From contig JAVJSI010000016.1 of the NCBI GenBank assembly GCA_040219515.1, forward strand, positions 61,390-125,389: 64,000 bases of DNA, read 5' to 3'. This document shows positions 8,481-50,300 of the stretch, in pieces. Below the pieces are notes generated by a model. It ran no database searches, was not told where the DNA came from, and was given only the letters and a program-made list of their open reading frames with translations. The position numbers and the translations under genes are program-made. Numbering within the stretch: the first letter of the stretch is position 1; each line of letters begins with the position of its first letter. This stretch comes from Acidimicrobiales bacterium. GTDB taxonomy: Bacteria; Actinomycetota; Acidimicrobiia; Acidimicrobiales; Aldehydirespiratoraceae.

Positions 8481-8555
8481 CGGGCTGTGGCGCAGCTTGG
8501 TTAGCGCGTCGGTCTGGGGGACCGAAGGTCGGAGGTTCAAATCCTCTCAGCCCGA
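8481..8555 (+). tRNA. tRNA-Pro (anticodon GGG)
   Basis: Hand-folded 75-nt cloverleaf. Acceptor stem is CGGGCUG/CAGCCCG + A73, D stem GCGC/GCGC, anticodon stem UCGGU/ACCGA with loop CUGGGGG (GGG at 34-36, G37), and T arm GGAGG-UUCAAAU-CCUCU. CCA is not encoded. Confidence 0.9.
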
Positions 8556-8556
8556 C
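8513..8556. repeat. attL: 44-bp direct repeat covering the tRNA-Pro 3-prime half
   Basis: tctgggggaccgaaggtcggaggttcaaatcctctcagcccgac is identical to 17122..17165. Confidence 0.9.
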
Positions 8557-8573
8557 AACGAAACTCCCGCAGC

Positions 8574-8599
8574 GGACCTTGGGGATTGGCCCAAGGTCC
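8574..8599 (+). terminator. Stem-loop just downstream of the reconstituted tRNA-Pro
   Basis: Perfect 10-bp inverted repeat ggaccttggg / cccaaggtcc with a 6-nt loop, 19 nt after the tRNA end. No clear U-tract. Confidence 0.45.
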
Positions 8600-8917
8600 G
8601 TACCGGGTGTAGCGGGCTCGATGTTGGGTTCGGACACCGCATGGACACGCCGGTCCGGTCTCGGAGTTCGGCTCCCAAGAAAGTTCTGGGTCCGCGTGCA
8701 AAAAACTGGGGTGTGGGTGGCCTTTACTCCATGAGAGGCACATTTCTGAGCCGTCCCGGTTACTCCGGTACGGGGCGGGAAACCGTGGTACACTCTCGTT
8801 TCACAACTTATCCCCGAGAGCTAGGGCCCGGGTTGGACAACTGTTCCGGCTCGAATACACCCCGAGGCGATACTCGTCATGGCTTGCCATGGGCTCTCTC
8901 TGATTACGGAGGAACCC

Positions 8918-9466
8918 ATGGTTCATTCATTTTTGCCCGACAATTCGCCCGTTACCGAGGCTCAGCTTCGCCAGTTCCACGCTGGTGTGAAGCGCCGGAG
9001 TTCGAGCCTTCTGAACGAACAGGACGTCGAGGACCTTGCGTCCGACATCCTTGTCGATGCGTACGCAGCAGCTAAGCGGCTGGGGTACGACCCGATGCGG
9101 TTGGCGTTCGCCATGTCGAAGAATCGCCCGAGGTACTACAGCCGGGCCAAGACCCGCAAGGTCCGAGAACTCGGCGAACTCGACCTGCTTGTCGCCGGTG
9201 ACGACCCCGATGACCCCGAAGACGAACTGGTCGATGACACGGCCTGGACCGACCATCGGGCCTCGTTCGAGGACCTGCTGGGTCTGAACGCCATGCTCCA
9301 GGACTTGCCCGAGCACCAGCGCCACGTCGTAGAACTCGACCTGGCAGGCCTTACCGATGACGAGATTGGCCAGGTCCTCGACCGGTCCGTCTCCACCGTT
9401 AGTCGCCGGCGCACGGCCGCAAGAGCCTCGATTCGGCGACAGTGTCGCCACACCGGGTCGGCCTGA
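8918..9466 (+). CDS. Island-encoded sigma-70-family-like protein (region 4 HTH clear, region 2 weak)
   Basis: C-terminus LPEHQRHVVELDLAGLTDDEIGQVLDRSVSTVSRRRTAARASIRR is a typical ECF/sigma-70 region 4. The start is moved from 8879 to the ATG at 8918, preceded by GGAGGA (8908..8913). Confidence 0.6.
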   Translation: MVHSFLPDNSPVTEAQLRQFHAGVKRRSSSLLNEQDVEDLASDILVDAYAAAKRLGYDPMRLAFAMSKNRPRYYSRAKTRKVRELGELDLLVAGDDPDDPEDELVDDTAWTDHRASFEDLLGLNAMLQDLPEHQRHVVELDLAGLTDDEIGQVLDRSVSTVSRRRTAARASIRRQCRHTGSA

Positions 9467-9484
9467 CCCCGACATCTAGAAGTC

Positions 9485-9509
9485 GCCCCGGGGGACAGCC
9501 CCCCGGGGC
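9485..9509 (+). terminator. GC-rich hairpin between the sigma-like gene and the ATPase gene
   Basis: gccccggggg / cccccggggc 10-bp stem with a 5-nt loop. A second 6-bp hairpin follows (acagcg-caacagt-cgctgt, 9515..9533). Could act as an attenuator, terminator or operator. Confidence 0.4.
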
Positions 9510-9562
9510 ACCACACAGCGCAACAGTCGCTGTGCAACAGCAAACCCGAGGAGGGTACTGAA

Positions 9563-11446
9563 ATGACTAGGAAGAACACAGCTCAGGAGCATCTCGAGAA
9601 GCAGCGCGACTACGTCAAGAAGCGTCAGCTCGAGAATCAGAAGAAGGCGGCTGCCAACAGCGGCTCCGCCGGGCTCGTCGACGAGAAGATGTTGGCGGAG
9701 ACCATGCGGTCCGTTCGCTACCGGGACGAAGCGCACGCAGCCGGCGACCTCATCGACAACGCGATCGAGTCCGGGGCCACACAGGTTCACCTGGCGTTCA
9801 AGACCAACGGCAACGTCATCGAGGAGGTCGCCTTCATCGACGACGGCTCCGGCATCGACGCTACGTTCCTGCCGCACGCCACCAAGTGGGGCGGCTCGTC
9901 GAACGAGGGGCAACGCAACACCTTTGGTCGGTTCGGGTTTGGGCTTTCCAGCGCCTCCGTGAACCGCGGGCGCGCCTACGACGTCATCTCCCGGACGAAC
10001 CCTGGCGGCTTCAAGAAGGTGACCGTCGACCTTGACAATCTGTCGCAGGTGGGCGGGCTCGTCGAACTCCCTGAGGTCAACGACGGAGACCTCCCGGATT
10101 GGGTGGTCGACTACATCGAACGCGGCGCTAGCGATGAGCACGAGGCCTTTGAGGGCGGCGTCGACGCCGTTCGCACCGTTGTCATCTGGCGGAAGCTGGA
10201 CCGGCTGAACTGGCACAAGCGACCCCAGGCCTCGGCGAAGTACCGCGAGCACCTTGGGATTACCTACGCGAGCTGGCTCGGAGTTATTCGCCTCGTGGTC
10301 GAGGGAGCGCGAGTCGAACCCGTCGATGTGCTGTTCACGACGCCTGGTCATCGATGGTTTGAGATTGATGACTACCCCGGAGCCGACCCGCAGACTTCGA
10401 TTGAGTTCGATGTCCCCGACGCGAACGGGCAGAAGCATCCGGTCAAGGTGCGGTTCTCGTACCTGAGCGTCCCCGCCTACAACGCGCTTGCGTTGCCGTC
10501 GGGGCGCGGCCGGCCATCCAAGGTGCGCGCGAACGTCCGGAAGAACAACAACGGGGTCTTCGTCACCAGGAATGGCCGCTTCATCGAACTCGTGAAGACG
10601 GACGTCATCTCCTGGAACAACTACATGCGCCAGGTCGGCGTTGCCCTTGACTTCCCGCCTGCCCTCGACGAGGTGTTCGGGGTGACACCGGACAAGCAGA
10701 CCATCGTCTTCAACGAGCGCGTAGAGGACCTCTTGAGGACGCACGGGGTCGTCCGGGCGATGAACTCCCTCCGCGACCAGGTTGGCGCAGAGAGAAAGCT
10801 CGACGACATCTCGGACGATGCGATTCCCGATGAGGCCGACGAGAACACTCAGCGACCCTCGGAGAAGGTCATTGCCAAGGTGGTCGAGCGCGACTTCCGG
10901 AGCGCCCGAAAGGAGAGCGATGAGGCGAGGGCCGAGGCGGCGCGGAATCTTCGACGCCGGGTCAAGGAGGCGGCCGCCGAAACCGGGCTTCCGGAGGAGG
11001 ACATCGAGGAGGCCATCGTCGCCCGGCAACAGAAGCGCCCGTACCGCGTCGAGTTCATCAACCAGACCGCGGACGAGGCCTTCTACACCCCTTACATGGA
11101 CGGCAGCCAGCTCGTAGTGCGGGTCAACACAGCGCATCCGTGGTATCGCGAGGTCTATAGCCGACTCGATGCCGGCCAGGCGGAGATTCGCTCCGGGCTC
11201 GAACTAACGCTGTTCGTGTTGGGGATGAGCGAGATTGATTCCACGGGGGAGATGCGCATCTTCTATCGGTCCGAGCGCCTCGAGTGGTCTAGGAAGCTCG
11301 CGGACGCGTTCGACCTGCACCCGCTTGTCTTCAATGAAGCGGACTCACTGGAGGACGCCCGTGAGTTCGACGAGGGCCCGTGGGTGGAAGATGAGGAAGA
11401 CGATGAGCAACCCGCCGAGAAGGGCGCCGATACGGGAGCGGGATAG
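9563..11446 (+). CDS. GHKL-superfamily ATPase (HATPase_c_3 / MORC-MutL-Hsp90-like), island cargo
   Basis: 627 aa with N-box AAGDLIDNAIESGA, G1 box FIDDGSGID and G2 box GRFGFGLSSAS. There is no His-kinase dimerisation/phosphoacceptor region. The C-terminal tail is acidic. RBS GAGGAGGG lies upstream. Confidence 0.85.
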   Translation: MTRKNTAQEHLEKQRDYVKKRQLENQKKAAANSGSAGLVDEKMLAETMRSVRYRDEAHAAGDLIDNAIESGATQVHLAFKTNGNVIEEVAFIDDGSGIDATFLPHATKWGGSSNEGQRNTFGRFGFGLSSASVNRGRAYDVISRTNPGGFKKVTVDLDNLSQVGGLVELPEVNDGDLPDWVVDYIERGASDEHEAFEGGVDAVRTVVIWRKLDRLNWHKRPQASAKYREHLGITYASWLGVIRLVVEGARVEPVDVLFTTPGHRWFEIDDYPGADPQTSIEFDVPDANGQKHPVKVRFSYLSVPAYNALALPSGRGRPSKVRANVRKNNNGVFVTRNGRFIELVKTDVISWNNYMRQVGVALDFPPALDEVFGVTPDKQTIVFNERVEDLLRTHGVVRAMNSLRDQVGAERKLDDISDDAIPDEADENTQRPSEKVIAKVVERDFRSARKESDEARAEAARNLRRRVKEAAAETGLPEEDIEEAIVARQQKRPYRVEFINQTADEAFYTPYMDGSQLVVRVNTAHPWYREVYSRLDAGQAEIRSGLELTLFVLGMSEIDSTGEMRIFYRSERLEWSRKLADAFDLHPLVFNEADSLEDAREFDEGPWVEDEEDDEQPAEKGADTGAG

Positions 11447-11497
11447 GAAGCACGAGGGCGGCCGGGGCCATAAGGGCCCCGGCCGAGAGCGTCCGAG

Positions 11498-13324
11498 GTG
11501 AACGCGATGAGCATGCCGACCAAGAAGGAGAAGAAGGCCCTCCGCCAGAGGGTGCTCGATGAACTCGCGAACGTGCGCGGCCACACGGCCCTGGCACTCG
11601 ACTCCGAGGGGACAGACGCGAAGGACCATCTGCGCATGGCTCATGGGACACAGCGACAGGAGCTCCTCGACTCGTCGACTGAGTGGCTGGTCGCCAACGA
11701 GGACCGGATGCTCGAGCAGTTCGCGAACGGTTCGGATGTCGACCCCGCGGCGATTGACCCGGTCGTGGTCCCCGTTCGGACCCAGGGGGACGCCGATACC
11801 TTTCGATTTGCAGCTCTTCAGTGGTCCGTCCCGGTGTCTCAGGGGTACGGGCGACGGAGCCGGTTCCTCGTCCGCGACCGGCAGAACGACAAGCTGCTGG
11901 CAATCTTCGCATTGGGCGACCCGGTCATCGCTCAACGCTCCCGCGAGAAGGCGATTGGTTGGACTACTGAGCAGCGCAACCTAAGGCTCTACAACGTCTA
12001 CGACGCGTTCGTCCTCGGCGCCGTCGAGCCCTACCGGCAGCTGCTCGGCGGAAAGCTCGTTGCCCTGCTGATGCTCTCAAACGAGACGCGCACCTTCCTC
12101 GCGAACAAGTACCGCGGGAACACAACCGAGATTGCTGGCCTTGTGAAGGACCCGACTCCCGCCCTCATAACGACGTCGTCGGCGCTCGGCCGCTCCTCGG
12201 TCTACAACCGCGTCACATACCGAGGGACGAAGATGCTCCATTCGGTCGGGTTCACCGAGGGCTACGGCCACTTTCAGTTCTCGGGTGACCTCTTCGAGGA
12301 GCTTCGATCGTACGCCCGCCGCGTGGCTGAGGGAGATGTCAACCAAGCGGGGCGCCATCAGTCGAATCGCTTCGGCAAGGGGCCCAACTGGCGGTTCAGG
12401 GTCATTCGGAATGCACTTGAGCTACTTGAGGTCGACGAGCAGCTGCTGCAGCACAACGTTCGACGCGAAGTCTTCTTGGCGCCGGTGGCCCACAACTGGG
12501 ATTCCTATCTCCGCGGTGATGAAGATGAACTCGACGAGTTCGACCTACCTACCGCACAACTCGCTGAGTACTACCGCGAGCGCTGGGCGGTGGGGCGAGC
12601 GGAACGCAAGCCCGCATTCCGCTTCTGGGACCGGACTGAACTGCGGCTCACGCCGCAGCTGTCGAGCCGTCCAGTCCAGTTATCGCTGGCCAGTGCGCAA
12701 GTAGCGGCCGGTCGTGTCGAACTCGGCGCGTATCACCTTCGAATCGGCGTGGGGGTCGAGGACTGCAGAGGCAAAGCCCCTTCCGGTCGTGTGCTCGATG
12801 GACGTGCCTACCTCAGCCTCCTCGAGGGGCCCGACACTGCCCTCACGCTCGCCGACATCGAGTGGGAGGACGGCCAGCGGGAAGTCGTCGGGTGGTCGGG
12901 CGGTAGCGGGAGCACCGAGGGCCTCATCCGGAGGCATCGCGTGCAGGTGTTCCCCGCGAAGCGATTCCGCGACATGGCTGCCATGGAGCTTCGGGCTGCT
13001 GTCGTGGGCCGGGACCAAGGCATCAGCATCAGGAAGACGACGAACGACCGGCTGTCTGCCCTCGTGGGATTCGATGTCGAGAAGGCCCTCGATGTCGAGT
13101 TCGGGGCGGTGACAGGAACCCGAGAGTCGCTGCTTCGAGATGACGGCTCCAGACGGGCACAGCTCTGCGCCGTCTTCCCCTCCGCGGACCGCGCAGTACC
13201 GGCACTGGTCTGGGCGTTGACTAGGCCGCTAGCCCTCTTGGGAGAGAGCATGAGCGAAGGGCTCTTGCTCGACTCGCCGATGCTTCGCAGGCGGCCGCCG
13301 TCGCTGGAGGAGTTCTCGACTTGA
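11498..13324 (+). CDS. DUF4338 (Druantia DruA)-like protein with uncharacterised C-terminal half
   Basis: 608 aa. Residues ~115-200 (GRRSRFLVRDRQNDKLLAIFALGDPVIAQRSREKAIGWTTEQRNLRLYNVYDAFVLGAVEPYRQLLGGKLVALL) follow the DUF4338 pattern as I remember it (..RYLV.D..G..L..LgF..AAW....RD..IGW..eQR...L..VvNN.RFLILP). A likelier start is the ATG at 11507, which has GAGG 8 nt upstream. The assignment is from memory, not an HMM. Confidence 0.6.
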   Translation: MNAMSMPTKKEKKALRQRVLDELANVRGHTALALDSEGTDAKDHLRMAHGTQRQELLDSSTEWLVANEDRMLEQFANGSDVDPAAIDPVVVPVRTQGDADTFRFAALQWSVPVSQGYGRRSRFLVRDRQNDKLLAIFALGDPVIAQRSREKAIGWTTEQRNLRLYNVYDAFVLGAVEPYRQLLGGKLVALLMLSNETRTFLANKYRGNTTEIAGLVKDPTPALITTSSALGRSSVYNRVTYRGTKMLHSVGFTEGYGHFQFSGDLFEELRSYARRVAEGDVNQAGRHQSNRFGKGPNWRFRVIRNALELLEVDEQLLQHNVRREVFLAPVAHNWDSYLRGDEDELDEFDLPTAQLAEYYRERWAVGRAERKPAFRFWDRTELRLTPQLSSRPVQLSLASAQVAAGRVELGAYHLRIGVGVEDCRGKAPSGRVLDGRAYLSLLEGPDTALTLADIEWEDGQREVVGWSGGSGSTEGLIRRHRVQVFPAKRFRDMAAMELRAAVVGRDQGISIRKTTNDRLSALVGFDVEKALDVEFGAVTGTRESLLRDDGSRRAQLCAVFPSADRAVPALVWALTRPLALLGESMSEGLLLDSPMLRRRPPSLEEFST

Positions 13325-13539
13325 GCCCGACGCGGAGGCCACTTTCACTCCACCTTCGACTCGCCGTGTGGAGGTCCGACGAGTACGTCTGTCAGCATTG
13401 TCGCGGAGTTGGTTCGTGGCTCTCTCTCGAGGTTGACCACATCGTCCCGATTGCGCTCGGAGGCTCAGACATGTTCGAGAACCTCCAGACTCTGTGCCGG
13501 GGATGCAACCGCCGCAAGGGTGCCCGGTTCGTCGGTTGA
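13321..13539 (+). CDS. HNH endonuclease (small, stand-alone)
   Basis: 72 aa: CQHC...EVDHIVPIALGGSDMFENLQTLCRGCNRRKG, i.e. two CxxC pairs plus the H-N-H core. The TTG start overlaps the stop of the preceding gene (TTGA), suggesting translational coupling. Confidence 0.85.
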   Translation: MSPTRRPLSLHLRLAVWRSDEYVCQHCRGVGSWLSLEVDHIVPIALGGSDMFENLQTLCRGCNRRKGARFVG

Positions 13540-13596
13540 GCTGTTTCAAGCGGTGGCGAGGGCTTCTCGGCATCGCGGAATGTCGAACAGCTCAAC
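13535..13596 (+). terminator. Long imperfect stem-loop at the HNH stop codon
   Basis: Outer arms gttgagctgtt (13535..13545) and aacagctcaac (13586..13596) are perfectly complementary. Inner pairings are gcggtg/catcgc (one G-U) and cgag/ctcg. The structure spans the HNH TGA. Confidence 0.4.
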
Positions 13597-13944
13597 AAGC
13601 CGACGATGGAGCTCTCCCGACTATTCTCCCGCGTGCTCGAGGTCCGACGTCCATCGTTAGAGCTCCTGTGGTCGCCGCGGAGCTCGTTCTCCCAGATGTC
13701 GAATGCGAGCTCGAACTGGGCACCGCGATTCGTGGGGCGGGTGACAGACGTGAGTGCCGGCATCAACTCGCGCCGAACTTTCTCGCCGAACCGGCTATCG
13801 ATGAGTACCGCCTCGAGGAAGATTCTCGCCCAATATGTAAATCGAGAGGGCCAGGGGTCTCGGAGCCCGGTGCGTCGGCTGAACTTTCGACACCCCCCCC
13901 GGGGCCCAGAGCCTTGCTTCCGCAGTTCTCCGAGCGCCTAGTGC

Positions 13945-14100
13945 TCAGGTGCGTACCGACTCGGCCGGGTGGTTCCGTATGCGGCCGAGGGCGTTCAGAG
14001 CTGCTCGTAGCGCCTCCTCGACAAGGTCCAGCTCGTCATCCGGCTGGTCGCCCTGCTCGAGTTCGTCCTCGTCGGGGTCGTACGAACTGACGCTAGGCAT
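13945..14100 (-). CDS. Possible 51-aa micro-ORF coupled to the upstream wHTH gene
   Basis: Hand translation gives MPSVSSYDPDEDELEQGDQPDDELDLVEEALRAALNALGRIRNHPAESVRT. Its ATG (14100..14098) overlaps the TGA of gene 14100..14774 (ATGA). It is below the ORF-track size cut-off. Confidence 0.3.
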   Translation of the reverse strand: MPSVSSYDPDEDELEQGDQPDDELDLVEEALRAALNALGRIRNHPAESVRT

Positions 14101-14774
14101 CAGCGGCCGCCTTGCTCGTGGGATGGCCGGGACACCTCGGTTGCCGGCCGGTTGCCAGTTGTTTGGTTATCGACTCCGTTTAAGCGCCCTCGTGCCGCGA
14201 GCAGGCCGAGTGCGTTGACTTCGCGGTCTGCGCGGCGATCGCATCCCGCGACGAATACCGGAGGCGGCGGAGGTGGTTCGAGCGATGTCGCCCGTTGGAC
14301 GCCCTGGTTACCCGAGGTTCTACTGGTTTGGTACCGCAGGGGAGCCGCTGCGGTCTTCGGCGGAACCGCTGCCGTCACCGATGGAACCGCTGAGGGGTGC
14401 GTCCCCTCGACGCGCAGCGGTTCCGGATGGGGAACCGCTAGTTGGTCGAGGATGGAGGTAGTTACGGTCAGTGAGTACTCACTGCCGCGTCGACCGCGGC
14501 CCATAGCGATGAGTTCGAGCAGGCCGACCTCTACAAGCTCCTGCAGAAGCGGAGCGATCGCTGCGGACCGAAAGCCGAGCAGCTGTTGAAGCCGGCGCCG
14601 GGAGGTGAAGACGCTCGCACCGTCTCGGTCTGCGTCGATGGCCAAGACACGCATGACTATTCCGGCTCTCGTGGTGACGACGCCCTTGAGGACCAGGCTG
14701 TTGCCATACCTGGCCCACCCGAGGGCCGTGACGCCAATCTCGCGAAGGTTGAGGCGTCGGTCGCGTTCATCCAC
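14100..14774 (-). CDS. Island winged-helix DNA-binding protein (hypothetical; MarR/Rep-like wHTH)
   Basis: 224 aa. The segment RRRLQQLLGFRSAAIAPLLQELVEVGLLELIAMGRGRRGSEYSL looks like a wHTH, and the C-terminal half is Pro/Ala-rich and low complexity. Confidence 0.55.
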   Translation of the reverse strand: MDERDRRLNLREIGVTALGWARYGNSLVLKGVVTTRAGIVMRVLAIDADRDGASVFTSRRRLQQLLGFRSAAIAPLLQELVEVGLLELIAMGRGRRGSEYSLTVTTSILDQLAVPHPEPLRVEGTHPSAVPSVTAAVPPKTAAAPLRYQTSRTSGNQGVQRATSLEPPPPPPVFVAGCDRRADREVNALGLLAARGRLNGVDNQTTGNRPATEVSRPSHEQGGR

Positions 14775-14813
14775 GGTCGCCTATGTCCGACGGTCGATTT
14801 ACGTTCGGCCTGG

Positions 14814-15056
14814 TCATGTCACACCGCCCCGCGAACTCCGCTCAGCGGACTCCAGGAGCCATTTGCGGAGAGCGGCAATGGGGTACTGGACCTTCCCGCC
14901 GAGGCGGATAGAGAGCGGGCCTCGGTCGAGTGCTCGCCACTCGTAGAGCCGGGCTCGCGGGATGCCCATCGCCGACTCCACGGTTGTCACGTCGGCCATG
15001 GTTCGGCCATCCGCCTCCAGGTCGTCCAGCCACTTCGTCAGGTTCTCGTCGGTCAT
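14814..15056 (-). CDS. xis: Excisionase-family / AlpA-like HTH DNA-binding protein
   Basis: 80 aa. TVESAMGIPRARLYEWRALDRGPLSIRLGGKVQYPIAALRKWL matches the HTH_17/excisionase pattern (..t.y.w...g..P...lG+..r....l..Wl). Confidence 0.7.
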   Translation of the reverse strand: MTDENLTKWLDDLEADGRTMADVTTVESAMGIPRARLYEWRALDRGPLSIRLGGKVQYPIAALRKWLLESAERSSRGGVT

Positions 15057-15159
15057 ATCTGCCTCAGTTCCGTGCGGTCAGGTGCTCATCCGGACGCACT
15101 CTGGCGGAATTGGGTCGACTATGCAATAGTATGCGGACCTATACCTTAGGAGGTGAGTC

Positions 15160-15807
15160 ATGGTGAATCCAGCCATCGAGGTGTCATTCGGGAATGGCGG
15201 GTGGATTTGTGCTGTGACGTCATCCCTCCCAGACCATGTGGCGTGGGTCCGGCTGGCGGACGCCGGTCATGGCTATCGGTCGGTCGAGGTCTTCGTCTTG
15301 GGTCGCGGCGGAGCACCTGTCGACGCCGACGTTCTTCGTGCGATTCCTCTGGCACGAATCGAGACAGTGGTGAACGTCAACCGCGTGGACCTCGAATCGC
15401 GGATGCAGCTCCCAGCCCCGCAACTGGCTACCGCAGCCCGGCACTACGCGACGAGTTTCGGCTCGGAGGCCGAGAGCACGTGGGTCACTGAGATGTTCGA
15501 CAGCCAGATGGAAGACTTCACGGGTCACCGGCCCAATGAGCCGCGTCTAGAGCGCAGGAGCGGGAAGCCGAAGGAGTTGGCCTTGGAGAAGGCTCGTCTC
15601 GACATCCCGCCCGGCCGGAAGCGAGGAGACAACTTCTATCGCCAAGTCGCCGACGTGTACCGATTCCTTGCACCTCGGAGTCGGGCGGTGAACAAGCTGA
15701 TTGCCGAGGCAAATGGTGTGCCCAAGACGACAGTCGACAGATGGGTGCGCGAGTGCCGAAAGCGGGGCTTCTTGCCGGCGACGCGTCAAGGCTCGGTGAC
15801 CGCATGA
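15160..15807 (+). CDS. Island hypothetical protein with C-terminal HTH
   Basis: 215 aa with strong RBS TAGGAGGTG. The C-terminus NGVPKTTVDRWVRECRKRGFL is HTH-like. It ends 31 bp upstream of the integrase. Confidence 0.55.
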   Translation: MVNPAIEVSFGNGGWICAVTSSLPDHVAWVRLADAGHGYRSVEVFVLGRGGAPVDADVLRAIPLARIETVVNVNRVDLESRMQLPAPQLATAARHYATSFGSEAESTWVTEMFDSQMEDFTGHRPNEPRLERRSGKPKELALEKARLDIPPGRKRGDNFYRQVADVYRFLAPRSRAVNKLIAEANGVPKTTVDRWVRECRKRGFLPATRQGSVTA

Positions 15808-15838
15808 CAGCATCAACCGTCAACTTGGGGGCAACGCC

Positions 15839-16978
15839 GTGGCTTCCGTGAGCGTTCACCGTGCTGCTGACCGCTGGAAGGTCCGATGGCGAGAGCCCGA
15901 TGGGAAGGAACGCGCCAAGCGCTTCGACTTGAAGCGGGACGCGTCGAGCTTCGCGACGAGAGTACGTAGAGAACTGGACGTCGGCTCGTATCAGACGCGG
16001 ACGGAGTTCGAGCTTCATGCGAAGCGCCAGCGGGAGGCAACGGTCCGTGCCGTTGCTCGCCGGTGGCTTGAACTTGAGAGCGTCCGACTGAAGCCGACGA
16101 CGGTCGTGGCCTACGAGTCGATTATTGAGGGTCACATCGAGGCTGCCTTTGGAACCACCCCGGTTTCGCAGTTGGACGCTCGAGATGTTCAGCAGTTCGT
16201 GGCTGGGCTCACGTCCGGTGGCCGCCAGCCAAGGACGGTGCGCAACGTCGTGAATGTTCTCCGACCCGTCCTCGAGCTGGCAGTGAGTGAGGGTCTGGTG
16301 GACAAGAACCCGGCGGATGGTGTTCGCCTGCCACCGCCGCGAACGACGGCCTCGGAGCGGATGGTGTTCGCGCCTGCCGAGGAACTCATTCGCCTCGCCA
16401 CCGAACTCGGTAGGACCTACTCGCCGCTGGTGCTGTTCGCTGCGTTCGTTGGTCTTCGGGCAGGCGAGCTACATGCGTTGCGCGTAGGGGACGTCGACAG
16501 CTCTAGAGGGAGGGTGACGATTAGGAGGTCGGTCGAGGAGGTGCGTGGTCGACTCGTCGAGGGCACGCCCAAGAACGGCCGGGAGAGAACCGTCGGGGTT
16601 CCACCGGAAGTGCTGGCCGCGCTGAGTCCGCGACTGCTCGAGCGCTCGTCCCGGGACCTCGTCTTCACGACAGACTCCGGTGGGCAGATTCGCCACAGCA
16701 ACTTCTACCGTCGGCATTACCGACCAGCGGTCGTGCGATGCTCGACGGCCTCGGACTTGCCGAAGGACTTCCGTTTTCATGACCTCCGGCACTCGTGCGC
16801 CGCGCTGTTAATCGCAGAAGGAGCTCACCCGAGGGCCATCATGGAGAGACTTGGACACTCTTCCATCAGCGTCACGCTGGACACGTACGGCCATCTCTTC
16901 CCGAGTATCGATGAGTCGCTGACGGCGGCGCTGGACACCACGATTCGGGCGGCCCTCGAAGGCATTGAGGCCGCGTGA
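15839..16978 (+). CDS. int: Tyrosine recombinase / phage-type integrase
   Basis: 379 aa with an N-terminal SAM-like core-binding region. The catalytic domain carries ...RAGELHALRVGDVD..., HDLRHSCAALLIAEGAHPRAIMERLGHSSISVTLDTYGHLF (R..HxxR..Y). GTG start. Confidence 0.95.
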   Translation: MASVSVHRAADRWKVRWREPDGKERAKRFDLKRDASSFATRVRRELDVGSYQTRTEFELHAKRQREATVRAVARRWLELESVRLKPTTVVAYESIIEGHIEAAFGTTPVSQLDARDVQQFVAGLTSGGRQPRTVRNVVNVLRPVLELAVSEGLVDKNPADGVRLPPPRTTASERMVFAPAEELIRLATELGRTYSPLVLFAAFVGLRAGELHALRVGDVDSSRGRVTIRRSVEEVRGRLVEGTPKNGRERTVGVPPEVLAALSPRLLERSSRDLVFTTDSGGQIRHSNFYRRHYRPAVVRCSTASDLPKDFRFHDLRHSCAALLIAEGAHPRAIMERLGHSSISVTLDTYGHLFPSIDESLTAALDTTIRAALEGIEAA

Positions 16979-17121
16979 TTGGACACCTGGTGGACACAGG
17001 CCCTCGGGGAAGGTCCGGGACCAACCGTGAACGGACGAGGTCGGGAGGCGTGGACTCCTAGCGGTTCCTCAGGTTTCGGAGCCCTTGAGTTCTGAGAATC
17101 GGCTCCCGTTTCCGAAATCGT

Positions 17122-17165
17122 TCTGGGGGACCGAAGGTCGGAGGTTCAAATCCTCTCAGCCCGAC
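17122..17165. repeat. attR: displaced ancestral 3-prime half of tRNA-Pro
   Basis: Identical 44 bp to 8513..8556. The upstream sequence does not complete a cloverleaf, so this is not a second tRNA gene. Confidence 0.9.
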
Positions 17166-17179
17166 CACCGAAGAACCTC

Positions 17180-39715: not shown

Positions 39716-40248
39716 TGCTGACCCTCCTCACCGGAGGAGCGCGAAGCGGCAAGTCGTCGGCCGCAGTCCGCCTGGCCACGGTGTCGGGTCGCGCGGTCGT
39801 CTACGTCGCCACCGCCGAGGCGGGCGACGACGAGATGGCCGATCGCATCTCCCGCCACCAGGCCGATCGACCGTCCGAGTGGACCACGATCGATGCGCCG
39901 CGAGCGCTGGCGGAGGCCGTACGGACCGTCGACACCCAAGCCGCCGTCATCGTGGACTGCCTGGCCCTGTGGGTCACGAACCTGCTGGATCTGGCCGACG
40001 AGGAGATCCACGAGCGGGCGGCGGCCCTGGCGGGTGCGCTACGCGAGCGACAGGCCGACACGATCGTGGTGACCAACGAGGTCGGTGACGGCATCGTGCC
40101 CGACAACGCCGTGGCCCGGCGGTTTCGCGACGTGCTGGGCACCGTCAACCAGCAGGTCCGGTCGGTCAGCGATCAGGCCTACCTCTGTGTGGCCGGCGGC
40201 GTGATCCCGATCACCGATCTCACCGGACCCGAGGCGGGCCGTGTCTGA
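39715..40248 (+). CDS. cobU: Adenosylcobinamide kinase / adenosylcobinamide-phosphate guanylyltransferase
   Basis: MLTLLTGGARSGKSSAA P-loop, RISRHQADRP, VIVDCLALWVTNLL. The ATG overlaps the cobO stop (TGATG). Confidence 0.9.
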   Translation: MLTLLTGGARSGKSSAAVRLATVSGRAVVYVATAEAGDDEMADRISRHQADRPSEWTTIDAPRALAEAVRTVDTQAAVIVDCLALWVTNLLDLADEEIHERAAALAGALRERQADTIVVTNEVGDGIVPDNAVARRFRDVLGTVNQQVRSVSDQAYLCVAGGVIPITDLTGPEAGRV

Positions 40249-41227
40249 GCTGGAGGCGTTGCTGACGGATCTGCCGGGGCCCGACGCTGCGTCGGCAATG
40301 GCGGTCGGAATCCGTGCGTCGCACGTGCTGCGGCCAACCGGCGTGTTCATGGAACTGGACCGGGTCGCGGCCTGGTTGGCCGGCTGGCAGGGCACGGACG
40401 CGCCCCGTGTCGCACGGCCGCACGCGATCGTCTTCGCCGCCGATCACGGTGTCGCGAGCGAGGGGGTGAGTGCCTACCCGGCATCGGTGACCGCGGTCAT
40501 GGTCGATGCCCTGGCGGAGGGTGCCGCGACGGCGTCGGTGCTGGCCCGCGAGGCAGGGGCGACGCTCGAGGTGGTCGATGTCGGTGTCGGGGAGCCGACC
40601 GGCAACCTCCGGACCGAGTCGGCCATGACCCCGGCGCGGTTCGACGCAGCCATCACGGCCGGTGTCGCGGCCGTCGAACGCTGTGACGCCGACCTGCTCG
40701 TGCTCGGCGAGATGGGCATCGCCAACACCACGGCCGCCGCAGCCGTGGCGGCCGCAGTGGTCGGCGGTGATGCCGCCGACTGGGTCGGACCGGGTACCGG
40801 CGTGGCCGACGAGGTGCTGGCCGGCAAGGTCCGGGTGGTGGCCGATGCCCTGGACCGGGTCGGTCCGGTCGGACCGATCGAGGCACTGCGCGAGCTCGGC
40901 GGCGCGGAGCTGGCGGCGATCGCAGGCGCCACGATGGCGGCGCGTCACCGCCGTCTTCCGATCCTGCTCGACGGTTTCATCGTCGCCGCGGCGGTCGCGC
41001 CACTCGCGGCGGCCGAGCCGGGTGCGCTGCGGCACTGCATCGCCGCGCACCGTTCATCCGAGCCGGGTCACCGCCGTCTGCTCGAGTACCTGGGGATGTC
41101 GCCACTGCTGGACCTCGGCCTTCGACTGGGCGAGGGGAGTGGCGCGCTGGCGGCCGTGCCGTTGGTGCGCATGGCGGCCGCCGCAGTGGTCGATGTGGCG
41201 ACCTTCGAGGAGTGGGGCGTGACGTGA
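40241..41227 (+). CDS. cobT: Nicotinate-nucleotide--dimethylbenzimidazole phosphoribosyltransferase
   Basis: FAADHGVASEGVSAYP, LLVLGEMGIANTTAAAAV, LGLRLGEGSGA. Confidence 0.9.
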   Translation: MSELEALLTDLPGPDAASAMAVGIRASHVLRPTGVFMELDRVAAWLAGWQGTDAPRVARPHAIVFAADHGVASEGVSAYPASVTAVMVDALAEGAATASVLAREAGATLEVVDVGVGEPTGNLRTESAMTPARFDAAITAGVAAVERCDADLLVLGEMGIANTTAAAAVAAAVVGGDAADWVGPGTGVADEVLAGKVRVVADALDRVGPVGPIEALRELGGAELAAIAGATMAARHRRLPILLDGFIVAAAVAPLAAAEPGALRHCIAAHRSSEPGHRRLLEYLGMSPLLDLGLRLGEGSGALAAVPLVRMAAAAVVDVATFEEWGVT

Positions 41228-41970
41228 CGTCGGCTCGCATCGCGTGGTCGTTCCTGACCCGCCTGCCGGGTGGCGCCCATCCGGGCCCGAGCGACTCCAT
41301 GGCGTCGGCGGTCCCGTGGTTCCCGGTCGTCGGACTGGTCCTCGGCGCCGGTCTGGGCGCCGTCTACCTCGGCCTCTTCGAGATCACCTCGCCGACGGTC
41401 GCCGCGCTGGCCACCATCGGTCTCGGCGCGCTCGCAACCGGCGCGTTTCACGAGGACGGGCTGGCCGACACGTTCGACGCGTTCGGCGGCTACGAGCCCG
41501 AGCAGCGTCTCGAGATCATGCGCGACTCGAGGATCGGCACCTTCGGCACGCTGGCGCTCGTGGTGGCGACCGGGCTGAAGGTCGCCGGACTCGCGAGCCT
41601 CGACGGCGCCGACGGACTTGTCGCACTGGTCGTCGCCCACAGCGCGGCGCGCGCCACGGCGTTGCTCGTGATGCGGGCCGGTCCGGACGCGCGGACCGAA
41701 GGACTCGCAGCCAGCGCCACCGACCTTCCTCGCACGGCGGTGGCCGGCGTGGTGGCCGTCACGGCGCTGGCCGGGGTCGGCCTCGGACCGGTGACCGCAA
41801 TTGCGGTCGCCGCCCTGCTCGGCGTCGCCGTCGGTGCCGTGCGGGTCGCGCGGCGTCGATTCGGCGGGACGACCGGCGATGTCCTGGGGGCGGTCGAGCA
41901 GGTGAGCGAGATCGTCGTGCTACTCGTGTGCGCGGAGCTGGTGGGCGAACTGGGCTGGCTGTGGGGCTGA
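41212..41970 (+). CDS. cobS: Adenosylcobinamide-GDP ribazoletransferase (cobalamin synthase)
   Basis: AWSFLTRLP, GAFHEDGLADTFDAFGG and multiple TM helices. The start may be a few codons downstream. Confidence 0.9.
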   Translation: MGRDVTSARIAWSFLTRLPGGAHPGPSDSMASAVPWFPVVGLVLGAGLGAVYLGLFEITSPTVAALATIGLGALATGAFHEDGLADTFDAFGGYEPEQRLEIMRDSRIGTFGTLALVVATGLKVAGLASLDGADGLVALVVAHSAARATALLVMRAGPDARTEGLAASATDLPRTAVAGVVAVTALAGVGLGPVTAIAVAALLGVAVGAVRVARRRFGGTTGDVLGAVEQVSEIVVLLVCAELVGELGWLWG

Positions 41971-42464
41971 CGCTGCGGCTGCTGCGCCACGGCACGACGG
42001 AGTGGACCGAGGCCGGCCGATACTGCGGCCATGCCGACCCCGGTTTGAACGAGACGGGGCGGCTTGCCCTGCGTTCGGTCTGGCTGCCGGAGTCGGTCTA
42101 CCGATCCGTGGTGTGCTCCGACCTCCGACGCTGTCGTGAGACCGCGGCGGCGCTGGGCCTCGCGCCGACGCTCACAGCGGCCCTGCGCGAGTTCGACTTC
42201 GGGGCGATCGAAGGTGCGACCTGGGAGGAACTCGACGACGATGTCAGGACGGCACTGCTCGATCACGACTCGTTCGTGGCCCCCGACGGCGAGTCGGTCG
42301 AGGGGTTCGGCGCCCGGATCGACACGTTCGTCGAAGGACTGGACGATGGCCGACACCTGCTCGTCACCCACGGCGGGGTGATCCAGCACCTGCTTCGCCG
42401 GGCGGGTGTGGACCGCCATGTCGGTCCGGGGGAGTGGGTCGACGTGGAGATCAGCCCCCGCTGA
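41961..42464 (+). CDS. cobC: Histidine-phosphatase-family protein, probable alpha-ribazole phosphatase
   Basis: LRLLRHGTTEWTEAGRYCGHADPGLNETG (RHG motif) in the last position of the cob operon. The start (GTG at 41961, overlapping the cobS stop) is uncertain. Confidence 0.7.
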   Translation: MGLTLRLLRHGTTEWTEAGRYCGHADPGLNETGRLALRSVWLPESVYRSVVCSDLRRCRETAAALGLAPTLTAALREFDFGAIEGATWEELDDDVRTALLDHDSFVAPDGESVEGFGARIDTFVEGLDDGRHLLVTHGGVIQHLLRRAGVDRHVGPGEWVDVEISPR

Positions 42465-46760: not shown

Positions 46761-47378
46761 GTGAGCCCCGACGAACCGCCGCCGCGAGACCGCCAGATCG
46801 GCATCTTCGAGGATCGGATCGTCACGGTTCCCAACCTCATCTCGCTGGCCCGCCTCGCCTGCATCCCCGTGTTTCTCTGGCTGCTGTTCAGCGAAGACGA
46901 CCGCCTGGGCGCGGCACTCCTGTGGGCCGTCGTCGGCGCCACCGACTGGGTCGACGGATGGTGGGCCCGGAAGTTCGACGTGGTCAGCGAGTTCGGGAAG
47001 CTGATCGACCCGGTGACCGACCGGGCGGTGTTGATCGTGGGTGTGTTCGCGGTCGGGGTCGACGGGTCGGTGCCGTGGTGGTTGGTCGGCCTCACGCTCG
47101 CCCGCGAAGTGCTCGTGGCCATCGCGGGCGTCGTGCTCGGGGCACTCGGTGCCCGCCGCATCGACGTCACGTGGTGGGGCAAGTGCGCGACCTTCGGCCT
47201 GTATTTCGCCTTCCCACTGCTGCTCGGCGGCGCGTCGGATGCGGGTGTCGCCGATGCCCTCCGCTGGGCCGGGTGGGCCTGTGCGATACCCTCGCTGATC
47301 TACTCCTACCTCTCGGCCGCGCAGTACATCCCTCTCGGACTCACGGCGCTGCGCGAAGGTCGTCTCGACCGGGCCTAG
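46761..47378 (+). CDS. CDP-alcohol phosphatidyltransferase (PgsA/cardiolipin synthase type)
   Basis: GATDWVDGWWARKFDVVSEFGKLIDPVTDR matches DG(x)2AR(x)8G(x)3D(x)3D. GTG start. Confidence 0.85.
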   Translation: MSPDEPPPRDRQIGIFEDRIVTVPNLISLARLACIPVFLWLLFSEDDRLGAALLWAVVGATDWVDGWWARKFDVVSEFGKLIDPVTDRAVLIVGVFAVGVDGSVPWWLVGLTLAREVLVAIAGVVLGALGARRIDVTWWGKCATFGLYFAFPLLLGGASDAGVADALRWAGWACAIPSLIYSYLSAAQYIPLGLTALREGRLDRA

Positions 47379-50300
47379 TCGTCGGGGTCATCCACAGTGA
47401 CGGTGAAGACGAACGGGGTCGACGTGTCGGTCCCGCCGCCGTCATCGCGGAGCTCGATCGTGATGGTCGAGGTGCCGAACGAGGACCCGGTGAAGGTGAG
47501 GGCACCCGACGAGTCGACGGCCGGCGGGACGGAGAAGATTCCAGGGTTCGTGTTCCCGGTGACCACGAAGGAGAGGACCTGCGACGATTCGTTGGCTGCG
47601 CCGGCCGATATCGCCGACGCCCAGCCGGCGAACGTTGCTGATCCCGGGAAAACCGTTCTGTCGGGCCCGCCGGTGAAGCTCGGGGCGTCGTTCACCGCGG
47701 TGATGGTGAAGGAGACCGTCGCGGTGGCGCACAGCCCGACGCTGTCGCACACCTGGTAGTCGAACGACTCGGCGCCGTTGGCGTCGGCGGTCGGGGTGTA
47801 GTCGATGGTGCCGTCGGGGCGCGGTACCGCCGTGCCGCGAGACGCAGGCGACGTGATGGTCACGCTCGTGGGATCGATGTTGGGATCGACGTCGTTGGCG
47901 AGCACATCGATGTTCACGGTGGCTGCGTCCTCGAGGATCGCGGCTTCCGCATCATCGACGGCCACAGGTGCCACGTTGGCGGTGGTGAGCACCAGGGCGC
48001 TCGGGTAGTCGGCCGTCATCGCGATCCACATGTCGTGCTTGGTGAACTGGACCCAGAGCACGAGTTCGTGGCCGGGCAGCACGTCGTGGGTGACGGTGCC
48101 GAGATCGATCTCGCGGTACGACCATTCGTCGTCCTCATCGCCCCATTCCTCGACGAAGAAGTCGGTCGATGCGATGGAGGTGCAGCTACTGCCGAGGCAG
48201 TCGTACAGCCAGATGTAGGGATGGGTGTCGTGATCCCCGTGGAAACCCGCGGTGCTCGACCAGAGCTGGAGGGTGACCGGTCCGTCGAGCGAGACGGTGC
48301 CGGCCGACGCCGGAAGGGTCCAGGTCTGGTACTCGTCACCCGGCGGGGAGAACAGGCGACCGAGCAGGCTGCCGCTCTTCTCGATCGTCAGTCCGGGGTC
48401 GTCGTCGCCGTCGGCGTCGAAGACGGGATCGCTCGAGGCGGGTGGTGCAACCACGAGATCGTAGTCGTCGGCCGAGCCGCCGCGGTCGTCGAGGTACCAG
48501 CTGACAGTGGAGATGCCGTCGTCGATGAGCACCCGGACGGTGGCGACGTCGGTGGAGCCCCCCGGATCGCGGACGCGGTAGACGAACGTATCGGTACCGA
48601 CGAATCCGGGGTCGGGTGTGTAGGTGAACGAGCCGTCGGCTGCGAGGACGACGGAGCCGTCGGAGGGGACGACGACCGGGGTGGTTTCGACGGTGAGCGG
48701 TTCGCGGTCGGGATCGCCGTCGTTCGTGAGCAGGCCCGGAGCGACGACGACGAGATCGGTGTCCTCGGCGCCGGCATAGCCGTCGTCGGCTGCGATCGGT
48801 GCGTCGGGCCCCGGAGTGACCGTGAACCGGCCGACTGCGCTGTCGCTGCCGCCGGCGCCATCGGTCACCGTGTAGGAGAAGGTGATCACGCCGTTCCAGT
48901 CGGCACCGGGTACGAAACGGAACACGCCACCGCTCTGGAGCGTGAGTGTGCCGTACTCGATGCCCGACGCGTCGTAGCCCGAAACCGAGAGGAAATCGAG
49001 GTCGCTGTCGGTGTCGTTCGCCAGAACATTCAACAGCCCGAACGGCGCGTCCTCCGCGATCGTCGTCGAGTCGTCGTTGGCGATCGGCGCGTCGTTGGCG
49101 CTGGTCACGGAGATGAGAGCGGTCACCGGGTCCGACCGGTCGATCCCACCGTTCGAGGTTCCGCCGTTGTCGGCCGCTGTGACGGTGATCGTCGCGGTGC
49201 CGTGCGCATCGGCCCTCGGCCGGAATGTGAGGGTGCCCGACGGGCTGACGGCGGGTGCGGTGACGAACAGCGAGGGGTTGGTGGTCTTCACGGAGAACAC
49301 GACGGATTGGCCGGTCTCGTCGGCGGGTCCCGGGGAGATCGTCCTGGCCCACCCGCTCCGGCTGACCAGGCCTGCGTCCTCGGAGACGGTCACCGGTGAC
49401 CCCGCGGTGAAGGACGGTGCGTCGTTGACCGCCGTGACGCTGACGGACACCCACGCCCGGCTGCACGAACCGACAAGATCGCAGATCTCGTATTCGAAGG
49501 TCGAGACGCCGTTGCGATCGGCCGCGGGGGTGAAGCGGATCTTGCCGCTCTCGACCACGGCACTGCCGCTGGTCGGATCCGAGGTGATCGCGAGCGTGGA
49601 CAGGTCGGCGCCTCCCGACCCGGCGAGATCGTTGGCGAGGACGTGGATGAGCGCGCTGCCGTCCTCGAGAACGGCAGCCGTGTCGGCGAAGGCGGCCATG
49701 CGCACCGGTGCGGCCCCGACGATGATCGTCGCAGTGGCGCTCGCCCGGGCGCCGGCCGGATCCTGCACGGTGTAGCGGAGCGAGCCCGTTCCCTGGAAGC
49801 CGACGGCGGGCTTGAACGTCACGTTCGCGCCGTCGTGGGTCGCCGTCCCGCCGACGATGTCGCTCATCGCGACGATCGTGAGCGGGTCGCCGTCGACGTC
49901 GGTGTCGTTGGCGAGCACCGGAACGAGGACCTCCGTCCGGTAGGGGGTCGAGACGCCATCGGCCGATGCCTTCGGCGCGTCGTTGACCGGGACGATGTCG
50001 ACCGTGACCCGTCCCGTGGCGCTGCCGCCGTTGCCATCGCCGATCTGGTATTCGAGCACCGTTCGACCGTTGGCGTCGGGTGGCGGTGTGTAGCGCACAC
50101 CGTTGGAGACGATCGCCGCCGAATCGCCGATGTACCCGCCCACCCGGGCGACAGAGAGCAACGCGAGCGTGTCGCCGTCGGCATCGGTGTCGTTGGCCAG
50201 CACGTCGATGACGACAGGGGAGTCCTCATTCGTCGTTGCGGTGTCGGGAGTGGCGACGGGGTCGTCGTTCACGCTCGTGACGGCGATGGTGACGGTCGAC

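Follow-up and report, generated by a model that had tools for sequence, protein, structure and literature searches.

A four-gene cassette built around a protein of the DruA (DUF4338) family was found in a 64,000-nucleotide stretch of an Acidimicrobiales genome (contig JAVJSI010000016.1, positions 61,390 to 125,389; this whole stretch is called the window, and coordinates are counted within it). The cassette encodes, in order, a protein resembling extracytoplasmic function (ECF) sigma factors, a MutL/MORC-like GHKL ATPase, DruA fused to an unnamed C-terminal domain (CTD; the fusion is written DruA::CTD) and a small HNH endonuclease. It is the cargo of a small 8.6-kb integrative element inserted at a tRNA-Pro gene. 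On balance we favour the reading that it is an undescribed, mobile-element-borne candidate module for anti-phage or anti-plasmid defence. Druantia type I has DruA as its signature gene; at this locus DruA shows itself to be a portable module, not a Druantia-specific part. The DruA family and its name were already known; the GHKL–DruA(–CTD–HNH) cassette and the CTD family appear to be new. Searches of PADLOC-DB 2.0, Pfam, NCBIfam and the literature returned no description of either, and in the literature searched GHKL and DruA were never mentioned together and no biochemical function was given for DruA.

The DruA::CTD protein

The open reading frame (ORF) at 11498..13324 on the plus strand is a real gene, with 608 codons counted from a GTG at 11498. 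Its likely start is the ATG at 11507, which has GAGG just before it and gives a 605-aa protein. The product is 100% identical to a 605-aa 'DUF4338 domain-containing protein' annotated by NCBI in an Acidimicrobiales metagenome-assembled genome (P0001), with the same ATG start. The DruA module, a predicted GNAT-like core, occupies 11507..12652 (plus strand). Residues 40-340 of the protein align with positions 2-297 of the 297 in the Pfam profile PF14236 (E=1e-71; 242 bits, cutoff 27 bits), and residues 17-384 match PDLC00002, the DruA model of PADLOC (E=1.8e-112), far beyond chance. The profile search that the original prediction had proposed as a check is therefore significant and full-length. 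Its extra N-terminal region of ~110 aa did not survive, because these residues lie inside both DruA profiles and are conserved family-wide; K42 and R46, for instance, show 99% conservation across DruA proteins of all contexts. The C-terminal region of ~280 aa that it had called unknown is indeed without a match to any named family, but only ~220 aa of it (residues ~386-608, nucleotides 12653..13321) are unexplained, residues 340-385 being helices that are also present in short DruA proteins of ~385 aa.

Conservation of the core was measured on 84 DruA proteins drawn from every context. In this set 65 positions are ≥93% conserved, and the window protein keeps all 65. NCBI routinely names the family 'Druantia anti-phage system protein DruA', and the original prediction had named routine annotation with a known function as an outcome that would refute it. 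The naming is indeed routine, but it is a family label and gives no known function. The view that the biochemical role of DUF4338 is unclear was upheld, since the sole relevant statement in the literature searched is a comparative-genomics remark by Aravind and colleagues in which DUF4338 is called a GNAT-like acetyltransferase (PMC10853773).

An AlphaFold2 (AF2) model of the DruA module (pLDDT 91, pTM 0.85) is consistent with that remark. A Foldseek search of the model against the PDB gave nothing at E<0.001 (best E=0.057, probability 0.92-0.95), and the list was dominated by GNAT folds: the KKT23 acetyltransferase, the N-acyl amino acid synthase FeeM, the acyl-homoserine lactone synthases LasI and BjaI, Hat1 and a GNAT toxin. 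Elongator/Elp3 chains were also among the weak matches, and the order of secondary-structure elements fits GNAT. An invariant segment, P178-Y179-R-Q-L-L-G-G185-K186, follows a beta4-like strand and resembles, without being identical to, canonical motif A (Q/R-x-x-G-x-G/A). A second conserved segment reads S228…G231-R-S-S-x-Y236-x-R238. In our own reading of the model, P178-K186 and S228-R238 would take the places of GNAT motif A and the motif-B tyrosine. The model points to DruA as a probable GNAT-like enzyme, and with so many of its Arg and Lys residues invariant, its ligand may be a polyanion, coenzyme A (CoA) or nucleic acid.

DruA might instead be a non-catalytic adaptor or sensor scaffold that couples NTPases to effectors, its GNAT-like fold being a relic. 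In favour of such a role, the Foldseek E values stay above 0.05, neither sequences nor profiles of GNAT families match significantly, and DruA pairs with many unrelated NTPases (see below), as an adaptor would. We consider it unlikely, because the ~65 positions ≥93% conserved across phyla, including P-Y-R-x-L-L-G-G-K and S-x-x-G-R-S-S-x-Y-x-R at the presumed places of the GNAT CoA site and catalytic tyrosine, are more typical of an enzyme, and because two-gene GHKL–DruA systems exist without any other candidate effector.

The CTD (12653..13324, plus strand; ~220 aa) has no named family. Modelled alone by AF2 it reached pLDDT 93.8 and formed a five-strand beta-meander and further hairpins, followed by an alpha/beta half. 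Foldseek found no credible match for it in the PDB (best E=0.39, probability 0.13) and none among the BFVD viral models. It belongs to no Pfam family, and none of the 29 CTD-family members scanned in PADLOC matched a model there. A resemblance of the long-form profile to the integron-cassette proteins 3fuy and 4nwr among PDB sequences (E=0.0076) was spurious and vanished with a broader CTD-family profile.

Relatives of the CTD occur well beyond DruA: an exhaustive phmmer search recovered 110 cluster representatives elsewhere. Most are stand-alone proteins of ~183-200 aa without a Pfam domain (P0249-P0415). Some NERD–pseudokinase–kinase proteins of 870-1206 aa carry the domain at their C-terminus (P0253, P0295, P0308, P0312, P0331); they match only the first ~780 of the 1403 positions of the PADLOC PglW profile, at E=2e-208. 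In one protein (P0345) the domain lies N-terminal to a Schlafen/AlbA_2 domain. An unnamed family of ~185 aa, with the conserved motifs AD..W.NG.RDV, ELR, GTR..L..D.G.RR..LC..F and VP..A..LTR, links in this way DruA, PglW-like kinases and Schlafen/AlbA proteins. Loci of CTD carriers (L091-L094) place the stand-alone genes beside MmeI-type restriction-modification (R-M), SNF2, M78-HTH, GmrSD, patatin and resolvase genes, and one PglW-like carrier adjoins a Type ISP R-M gene. These architectures and neighbours mark the CTD as a mobile domain, so far without a name, that belongs to conflict systems. It would serve as a sensor, a specificity determinant or a docking surface.

The cassette and its integrative element

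The GHKL gene (9563..11446, plus strand) encodes a 627-aa ATPase of MutL/MORC type, recognised by PF13589 at E=1.5e-13 and weakly resembling MzaB, MutL and PMS1 at its N-terminus. Residues N66, D93xGxG97, G122xxG125xG127, T205 and K378-Q379 are invariant in 38 homologues, and position 62 is always D or E. D/E62 would be the acidic general base and N66 the Mg-binding residue, and K378 lies in the transducer region. Because its ATPase motifs are invariant in the 38 homologues, the protein is predicted to be an active MutL/MORC-type ATPase. Identification as MzaB itself was ruled out, the match reaching 49 bits against an equivalog cutoff of 850 bits (NF041932) and covering the N-terminal 160 residues only. 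The cassette GHKL family is named only 'ATP-binding protein'.

A gap of 52 nt separates the GHKL gene from DruA::CTD, which is followed by the gene for the predicted effector, a small HNH endonuclease of 72 aa (13321..13539, plus strand; PF01844, E=4e-14). The HNH core is visible as CQHC…DH…N…CRGC, in agreement with the family pattern CxxC…H…N…CxxC. The TTG start of the HNH gene and the stop codon of DruA overlap (TTGA; -4 nt), GGAGGAG lies 8 nt upstream, and translation of the two genes is probably coupled. The Pfam matches of these two neighbours confirm what had been said of the partners of DruA, namely that they are a GHKL ATPase and an HNH protein. The first gene of the cassette (8879..9466, plus strand) is ECF-sigma-like, with matches to Sigma70_r4_2 (E=3.8e-8) and TIGR02937 (44.5 bits against a 42.9-bit cutoff); its likely start is the ATG at 8918, preceded by GGAGGA. 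A promoter and terminator scan of the locus was uninformative.

This arrangement is conserved. Full-length relatives of DruA::CTD (~600-630 aa) form ~87 clusters, 43-60% identical to it and all apparently from Actinomycetota. We compared 88 fetched loci by tblastn; the distinct long-form loci, with the window, number 10. The order ECF-sigma-like, GHKL, DruA::CTD is conserved across these 10 distinct actinomycetotal loci, and HNH comes next in most of them. The GHKL gene stands immediately upstream of DruA::CTD in every long-form locus, and the sigma-like gene directly upstream of GHKL in 13/13 long-form loci (L001, L003 and L007-L015 included). The HNH gene follows directly in 8/10 distinct loci, again counting the window. 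In the Leifsonia aquatica locus a SIR2_2 protein takes the HNH position; L014 (6941-8734) holds a decayed pseudogene copy, in which DruA::CTD is frameshifted and split in two ORFs and no HNH lies downstream. Gene junctions are 0 to -1 nt in several homologous loci. Identities to the window parts are 60-64% for the DruA core, 56-59% for GHKL, 56-64% for HNH, 36-46% for the CTD and 28-31% for the sigma-like protein; by this measure the CTD and the sigma-like protein are the fast-evolving parts of the cassette.

A tblastn search of the window with DruE, DruB/C, DruD, DruK and DruG probes (taken from L025, L036 and L042) found none of these genes, and HerA was likewise not found. The druB, druC, druD and DUF1998/MZB helicase (druE) genes that stand alongside druA in Druantia type I are missing here, and no PADLOC Dru match occurs among the neighbours. 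Together with the profile matches, this bears out the original claim of a DUF4338 protein outside a Druantia operon. The plain DruA label that PADLOC and NCBI give the protein, and the absence of DruB-E genes nearby, are what would be expected if druA were an orphan left after loss of druB-E from a Druantia type I operon, beside chance neighbours. Yet 10 distinct loci, drawn from different actinobacterial orders and with an identity of only 52-60%, have the same gene order, and their reading frames overlap or abut. The long-form DruA proteins also form one clade in a neighbour-joining (NJ) tree (no support values). The sole decayed copy, L014, is visibly pseudogenised, unlike the window copy. 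Because the cassette is conserved, an orphan remnant is essentially excluded.

In the window the cassette lies within an integrative element. A tRNA-Pro (GGG) gene found by ARAGORN at 8481..8556 (plus strand) is the integration target, and its 3' part belongs to attL (8509..8559), the left copy of a 51-nt direct repeat. The right copy, attR (17118..17168), is the duplicated 3' end of tRNA-Pro; a repeat search of the window (repeat family D1) showed the two to be 96% identical over 51 nt. They bracket 8.6 kb (8481-17168), of which the 4.7-kb cassette (8.88-13.54 kb) makes up ~55%. Near the right end lies a tyrosine integrase (15839..16978, plus strand), with PF00589 at E=6e-22 plus SAM-like and central integrase domains. 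G+C content is ~64% inside the element and 67-70% in its flanks, which are ordinary: the left one encodes an RND transporter, the right one an oxidoreductase and glycosyltransferases. The cassette is the cargo of this element, inserted at tRNA-Pro, because tRNA-Pro repeats bracket it, an integrase and an excisionase-like helix-turn-helix (HTH) gene are present, G+C dips and the flanks are ordinary. A tyrosine integrase and direct repeats of a tRNA 3' end around the cargo are what define tRNA-targeting integrative elements.

The rest of the element is backbone. An excisionase-like HTH_17 protein (14814..15056, minus strand) gave a weak match to PF12728 (E=0.0041, below cutoff), and HTH_17 genes adjoin integrases in related elements. 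Beside it are a hypothetical 224-aa protein (14100..14774, minus strand) without Pfam, PADLOC or NCBIfam match and, upstream of the integrase, a hypothetical 215-aa protein (15160..15807, plus strand) without a family match. The window as a whole has a G+C content of ~68% and numerous spurious ORFs. Elsewhere in it, a 1429-aa ORF (47375-51664, minus strand) has the unusual architecture of an N-terminal HD/HD_5 (HD-GYP-like) domain and many Big_9/cadherin-like repeats, and at positions 40001-42000 the G+C content rises locally to 73%, far above the mean for the window, with an AT skew of -0.14.

Homologous loci also lie in mobile or defence-rich surroundings. L003 has an integrase, TrwC, a type IV secretion system (T4SS) coupling protein, TIR and DUF4062 proteins as neighbours; L001 has Mrr–NB-ARC and RelA/SpoT proteins, and L008 an integrase and Mom. 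The four-gene cassette is conserved, with its effector swapped (HNH or SIR2), on mobile elements. No copy was found in 50,697 phage records, and plasmids carry only short canonical DruA proteins.

Cargo of this kind could serve the element itself, as a module for addiction or post-segregational killing, for exclusion of competing elements, or for regulating excision and transfer. The cassette is always on or beside integrative or conjugative elements and is headed by a sigma-like regulator, and nuclease or NADase effectors could serve as toxins. We nevertheless hold such an element-serving role to be rather unlikely. The same DruA module is found in true Druantia operons, and chromosomal neighbourhoods of defence type hold it beside NurA-HerA or kinase-ORC proteins. 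Immune systems typically swap effectors and have accessory domains that evolve fast; what separates such a role from 'defence' is also partly a matter of words. Another possibility strikes us as improbable, namely that the element uses a GNAT-type transferase and the ATPase to aid its establishment, by modifying or inactivating restriction or defence proteins of the host, or its own DNA. It would agree with the place of the cassette as mobile-element cargo, with the ability of acyl-transferases to inactivate targets and with the Mom-like gene that adjoins the cassette in L008. It is countered by the position of DruA as what is said to be a required-looking first gene of validated Druantia I, by its co-occurrence with nuclease or NADase effectors and by the lack of copies in the phage records.

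DruA as a portable module

Short DruA proteins of ~385 aa, without the CTD, form two-gene pairs with a GHKL protein (~35% identity to the window GHKL) and no HNH. Such pairs were found in Streptomyces, Solirubrobacterales, Nitriliruptorales, Anaerolineae and Dehalococcoidia, that is, in Actinomycetota and Chloroflexota. The Streptomyces pair (L005) lies in an actinomycete integrative and conjugative element (AICE), with FtsK/SpoIIIE, RepSA and SpdB neighbours. As the short GHKL pairs have neither a CTD nor a separate effector, these two features go together. The idea that the window offers a simpler model for DUF4338 needs amending on this point: the two-gene pair is simpler still, and the window locus is a conserved four-gene cassette and no one-off. 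A sigma-r4-like gene heads the Chloroflexota short pairs (L031, L070; hhalign probability 95.9%). An equivalent gene upstream of the actinobacterial short pairs was rejected, the conserved upstream ORFs there looking like spurious high-GC ORFs (hhalign probability 0.1%).

Partners of DruA were counted in 80 species-representative loci, those nearest to the query, a choice that favours its relatives. GHKL was the partner in 18/80 loci. A DruE helicase was present in about 30/80, in the orders DruA–DruB/C–DruD–DruE, DruE–DruK–DruA and DruE–DruA–DruB–DruG-like, and NurA-like plus HerA proteins in about 13/80 (L029, L032, L049, L055, L061, L066, L075 and others). Part of the remainder consists of Ser/Thr-kinase–ORC/CDC6 AAA+ (L045, L047, L087), ResIII/SNF2 helicase (L067) and PolB (family-B DNA polymerase; L048) neighbours. 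DruA is commonly met apart from canonical Druantia and has at least five types of partner. The NurA–HerA, kinase–ORC/CDC6, ResIII/SNF2 and PolB contexts look like undescribed systems. The order DruE, PD-(D/E)xK (DruK-like), DruA, with druA last, is a Druantia variant found in L023, L025, L027, L028 and L039 (Solirubrobacterales, Chloroflexia).

In the NJ tree already mentioned, and without support values, the sister group of the long-form clade consists of the short GHKL forms of actinobacteria plus the Solirubrobacterales DruE/DruK forms. The same tree joins the DruA proteins linked to GHKL in Chloroflexota with those of Druantia type from that phylum, which implies partner swapping. The GHKL proteins also have distant relatives without DruA. 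One, in a cyanobacterial locus (L089, 2670-5472), is followed by a PLD-family nuclease among transposases, and another (L090, 6001-7839) adjoins an N6/N4 methyltransferase and genes without an assigned function.

A candidate defence module and known systems

Returning to defence as the favoured function, we propose that the core consists of the MutL/MORC-like GHKL protein and DruA. The GHKL protein would supply ATP-driven dimerisation or clamping on nucleic acid, or sensing. DruA would act as an arginine-rich GNAT-like acyl-transferase on a macromolecular target, protein or nucleic acid. In the long form the CTD may be a specificity or docking domain that senses an invader component, or recruits and gates a separate effector, or both. 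The effector would be the small HNH nuclease in the window and a SIR2 NADase-type protein in Leifsonia, and expression of the cassette genes is probably under the control of the sigma-like protein. Domain identities, gene order and coupling, conservation of the cassette, effector swapping, the mobile location and the lack of Druantia partners are shown by the data; that the cassette defends, that DruA is an enzyme, what the CTD does and in which order events follow are inferred.

Several features of gene order and sequence argue for this proposal: the tight operon, the conservation of the cassette, the invariant GHKL motifs, the conserved DruA core, the fast-evolving CTD, and the defence-island or mobile contexts. 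As a C-terminal module the CTD is also swapped into PglW-like defence kinases, and it occurs on an AlbA_2 protein; distant GHKL relatives pair with a PLD nuclease instead.

Other points weigh on the opposite side. A place as mobile-element cargo is equally compatible with a function serving the element. PADLOC-DB 2.0 holds no model for the cassette GHKL, the best match being MzaB at E=2.7e-9 over the N-terminus only. A sigma factor of ECF type is an unusual member of a defence operon and has no ready explanation here. The GNAT assignment of DruA is weak. Pfam searches at E≤10 on 54 family members gave no acetyltransferase (GNAT) family match, and an hhalign comparison of the family with E. coli RimI aligned only 16 columns at a probability of 0.4%, which is not significant. 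With both negative, a sequence-level link to GNAT families was rejected. The CTD has no known fold or function. Finally, no HNH gene adjoins the stand-alone CTD genes, and 'effector docking' therefore cannot be the general role of this domain.

A broader proposal can be put forward tentatively. DruA might be a universal ATPase-coupled acyl-transferase, a 'writer' that marks an invader or host macromolecule and works on at least five NTPase chassis (DruE helicase, NurA–HerA, kinase–ORC/CDC6, ResIII and GHKL). The GHKL–DruA pair would then be a minimal autonomous immune system, and the CTD an invader-sensing domain shared with PglW-like kinases that gates HNH or SIR2. As for the narrower reading, if the cassette does act in phage defence, it would be a new system type for Actinomycetota and would open a direct biochemical route to the substrate of DruA.

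Among known systems, TmcA/NAT10 and Elp3 are ATPase-coupled GNAT nucleic-acid acetyltransferases. The likeness to the cassette is a mechanistic analogy only, and the cassette ATPase is a separate GHKL protein. The cassette GHKL shares Bergerat-fold motifs and the transducer Lys with MzaB of the MZA system, along with weak N-terminal similarity; the other Mza genes are absent from the window locus and the score is far below the MzaB cutoff. With the PglW-like NERD–pseudokinase–kinase proteins (BREX type 2/Pgl) only the CTD is common, the window protein having no kinase or NERD domain.

The DUF4338(GNAT)–DndF fusions noted by Aravind and colleagues are similar in architecture: there too a conflict system has the DruA module placed N-terminally of an alpha+beta region that evolves fast (PMC10853773). 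The same alternative N-terminal partners, NERD with tandem kinases or DUF4338, recur on DndF and on the CTD. DndF differs in that the CTD model is without a P-loop kinase core, and neither the window protein nor the 29 CTD-family members gave a PADLOC DndF match.

The window protein is 41-45% identical to the DruA of DruA–DruB/C–DruD–DruE operons and has the same core residues. Druantia I is reportedly a validated defence system type, a result said to be that of Doron et al. 2018. Canonical DruA measures ~385-400 aa, and the window protein carries the extra CTD of ~220 aa. In place of leading a helicase operon, the window DruA follows a GHKL gene and is itself followed by HNH. With so compact a set of partners, two genes in the simplest case and four here, reconstitution would be far easier than for the five-gene Druantia operon of >12 kb.

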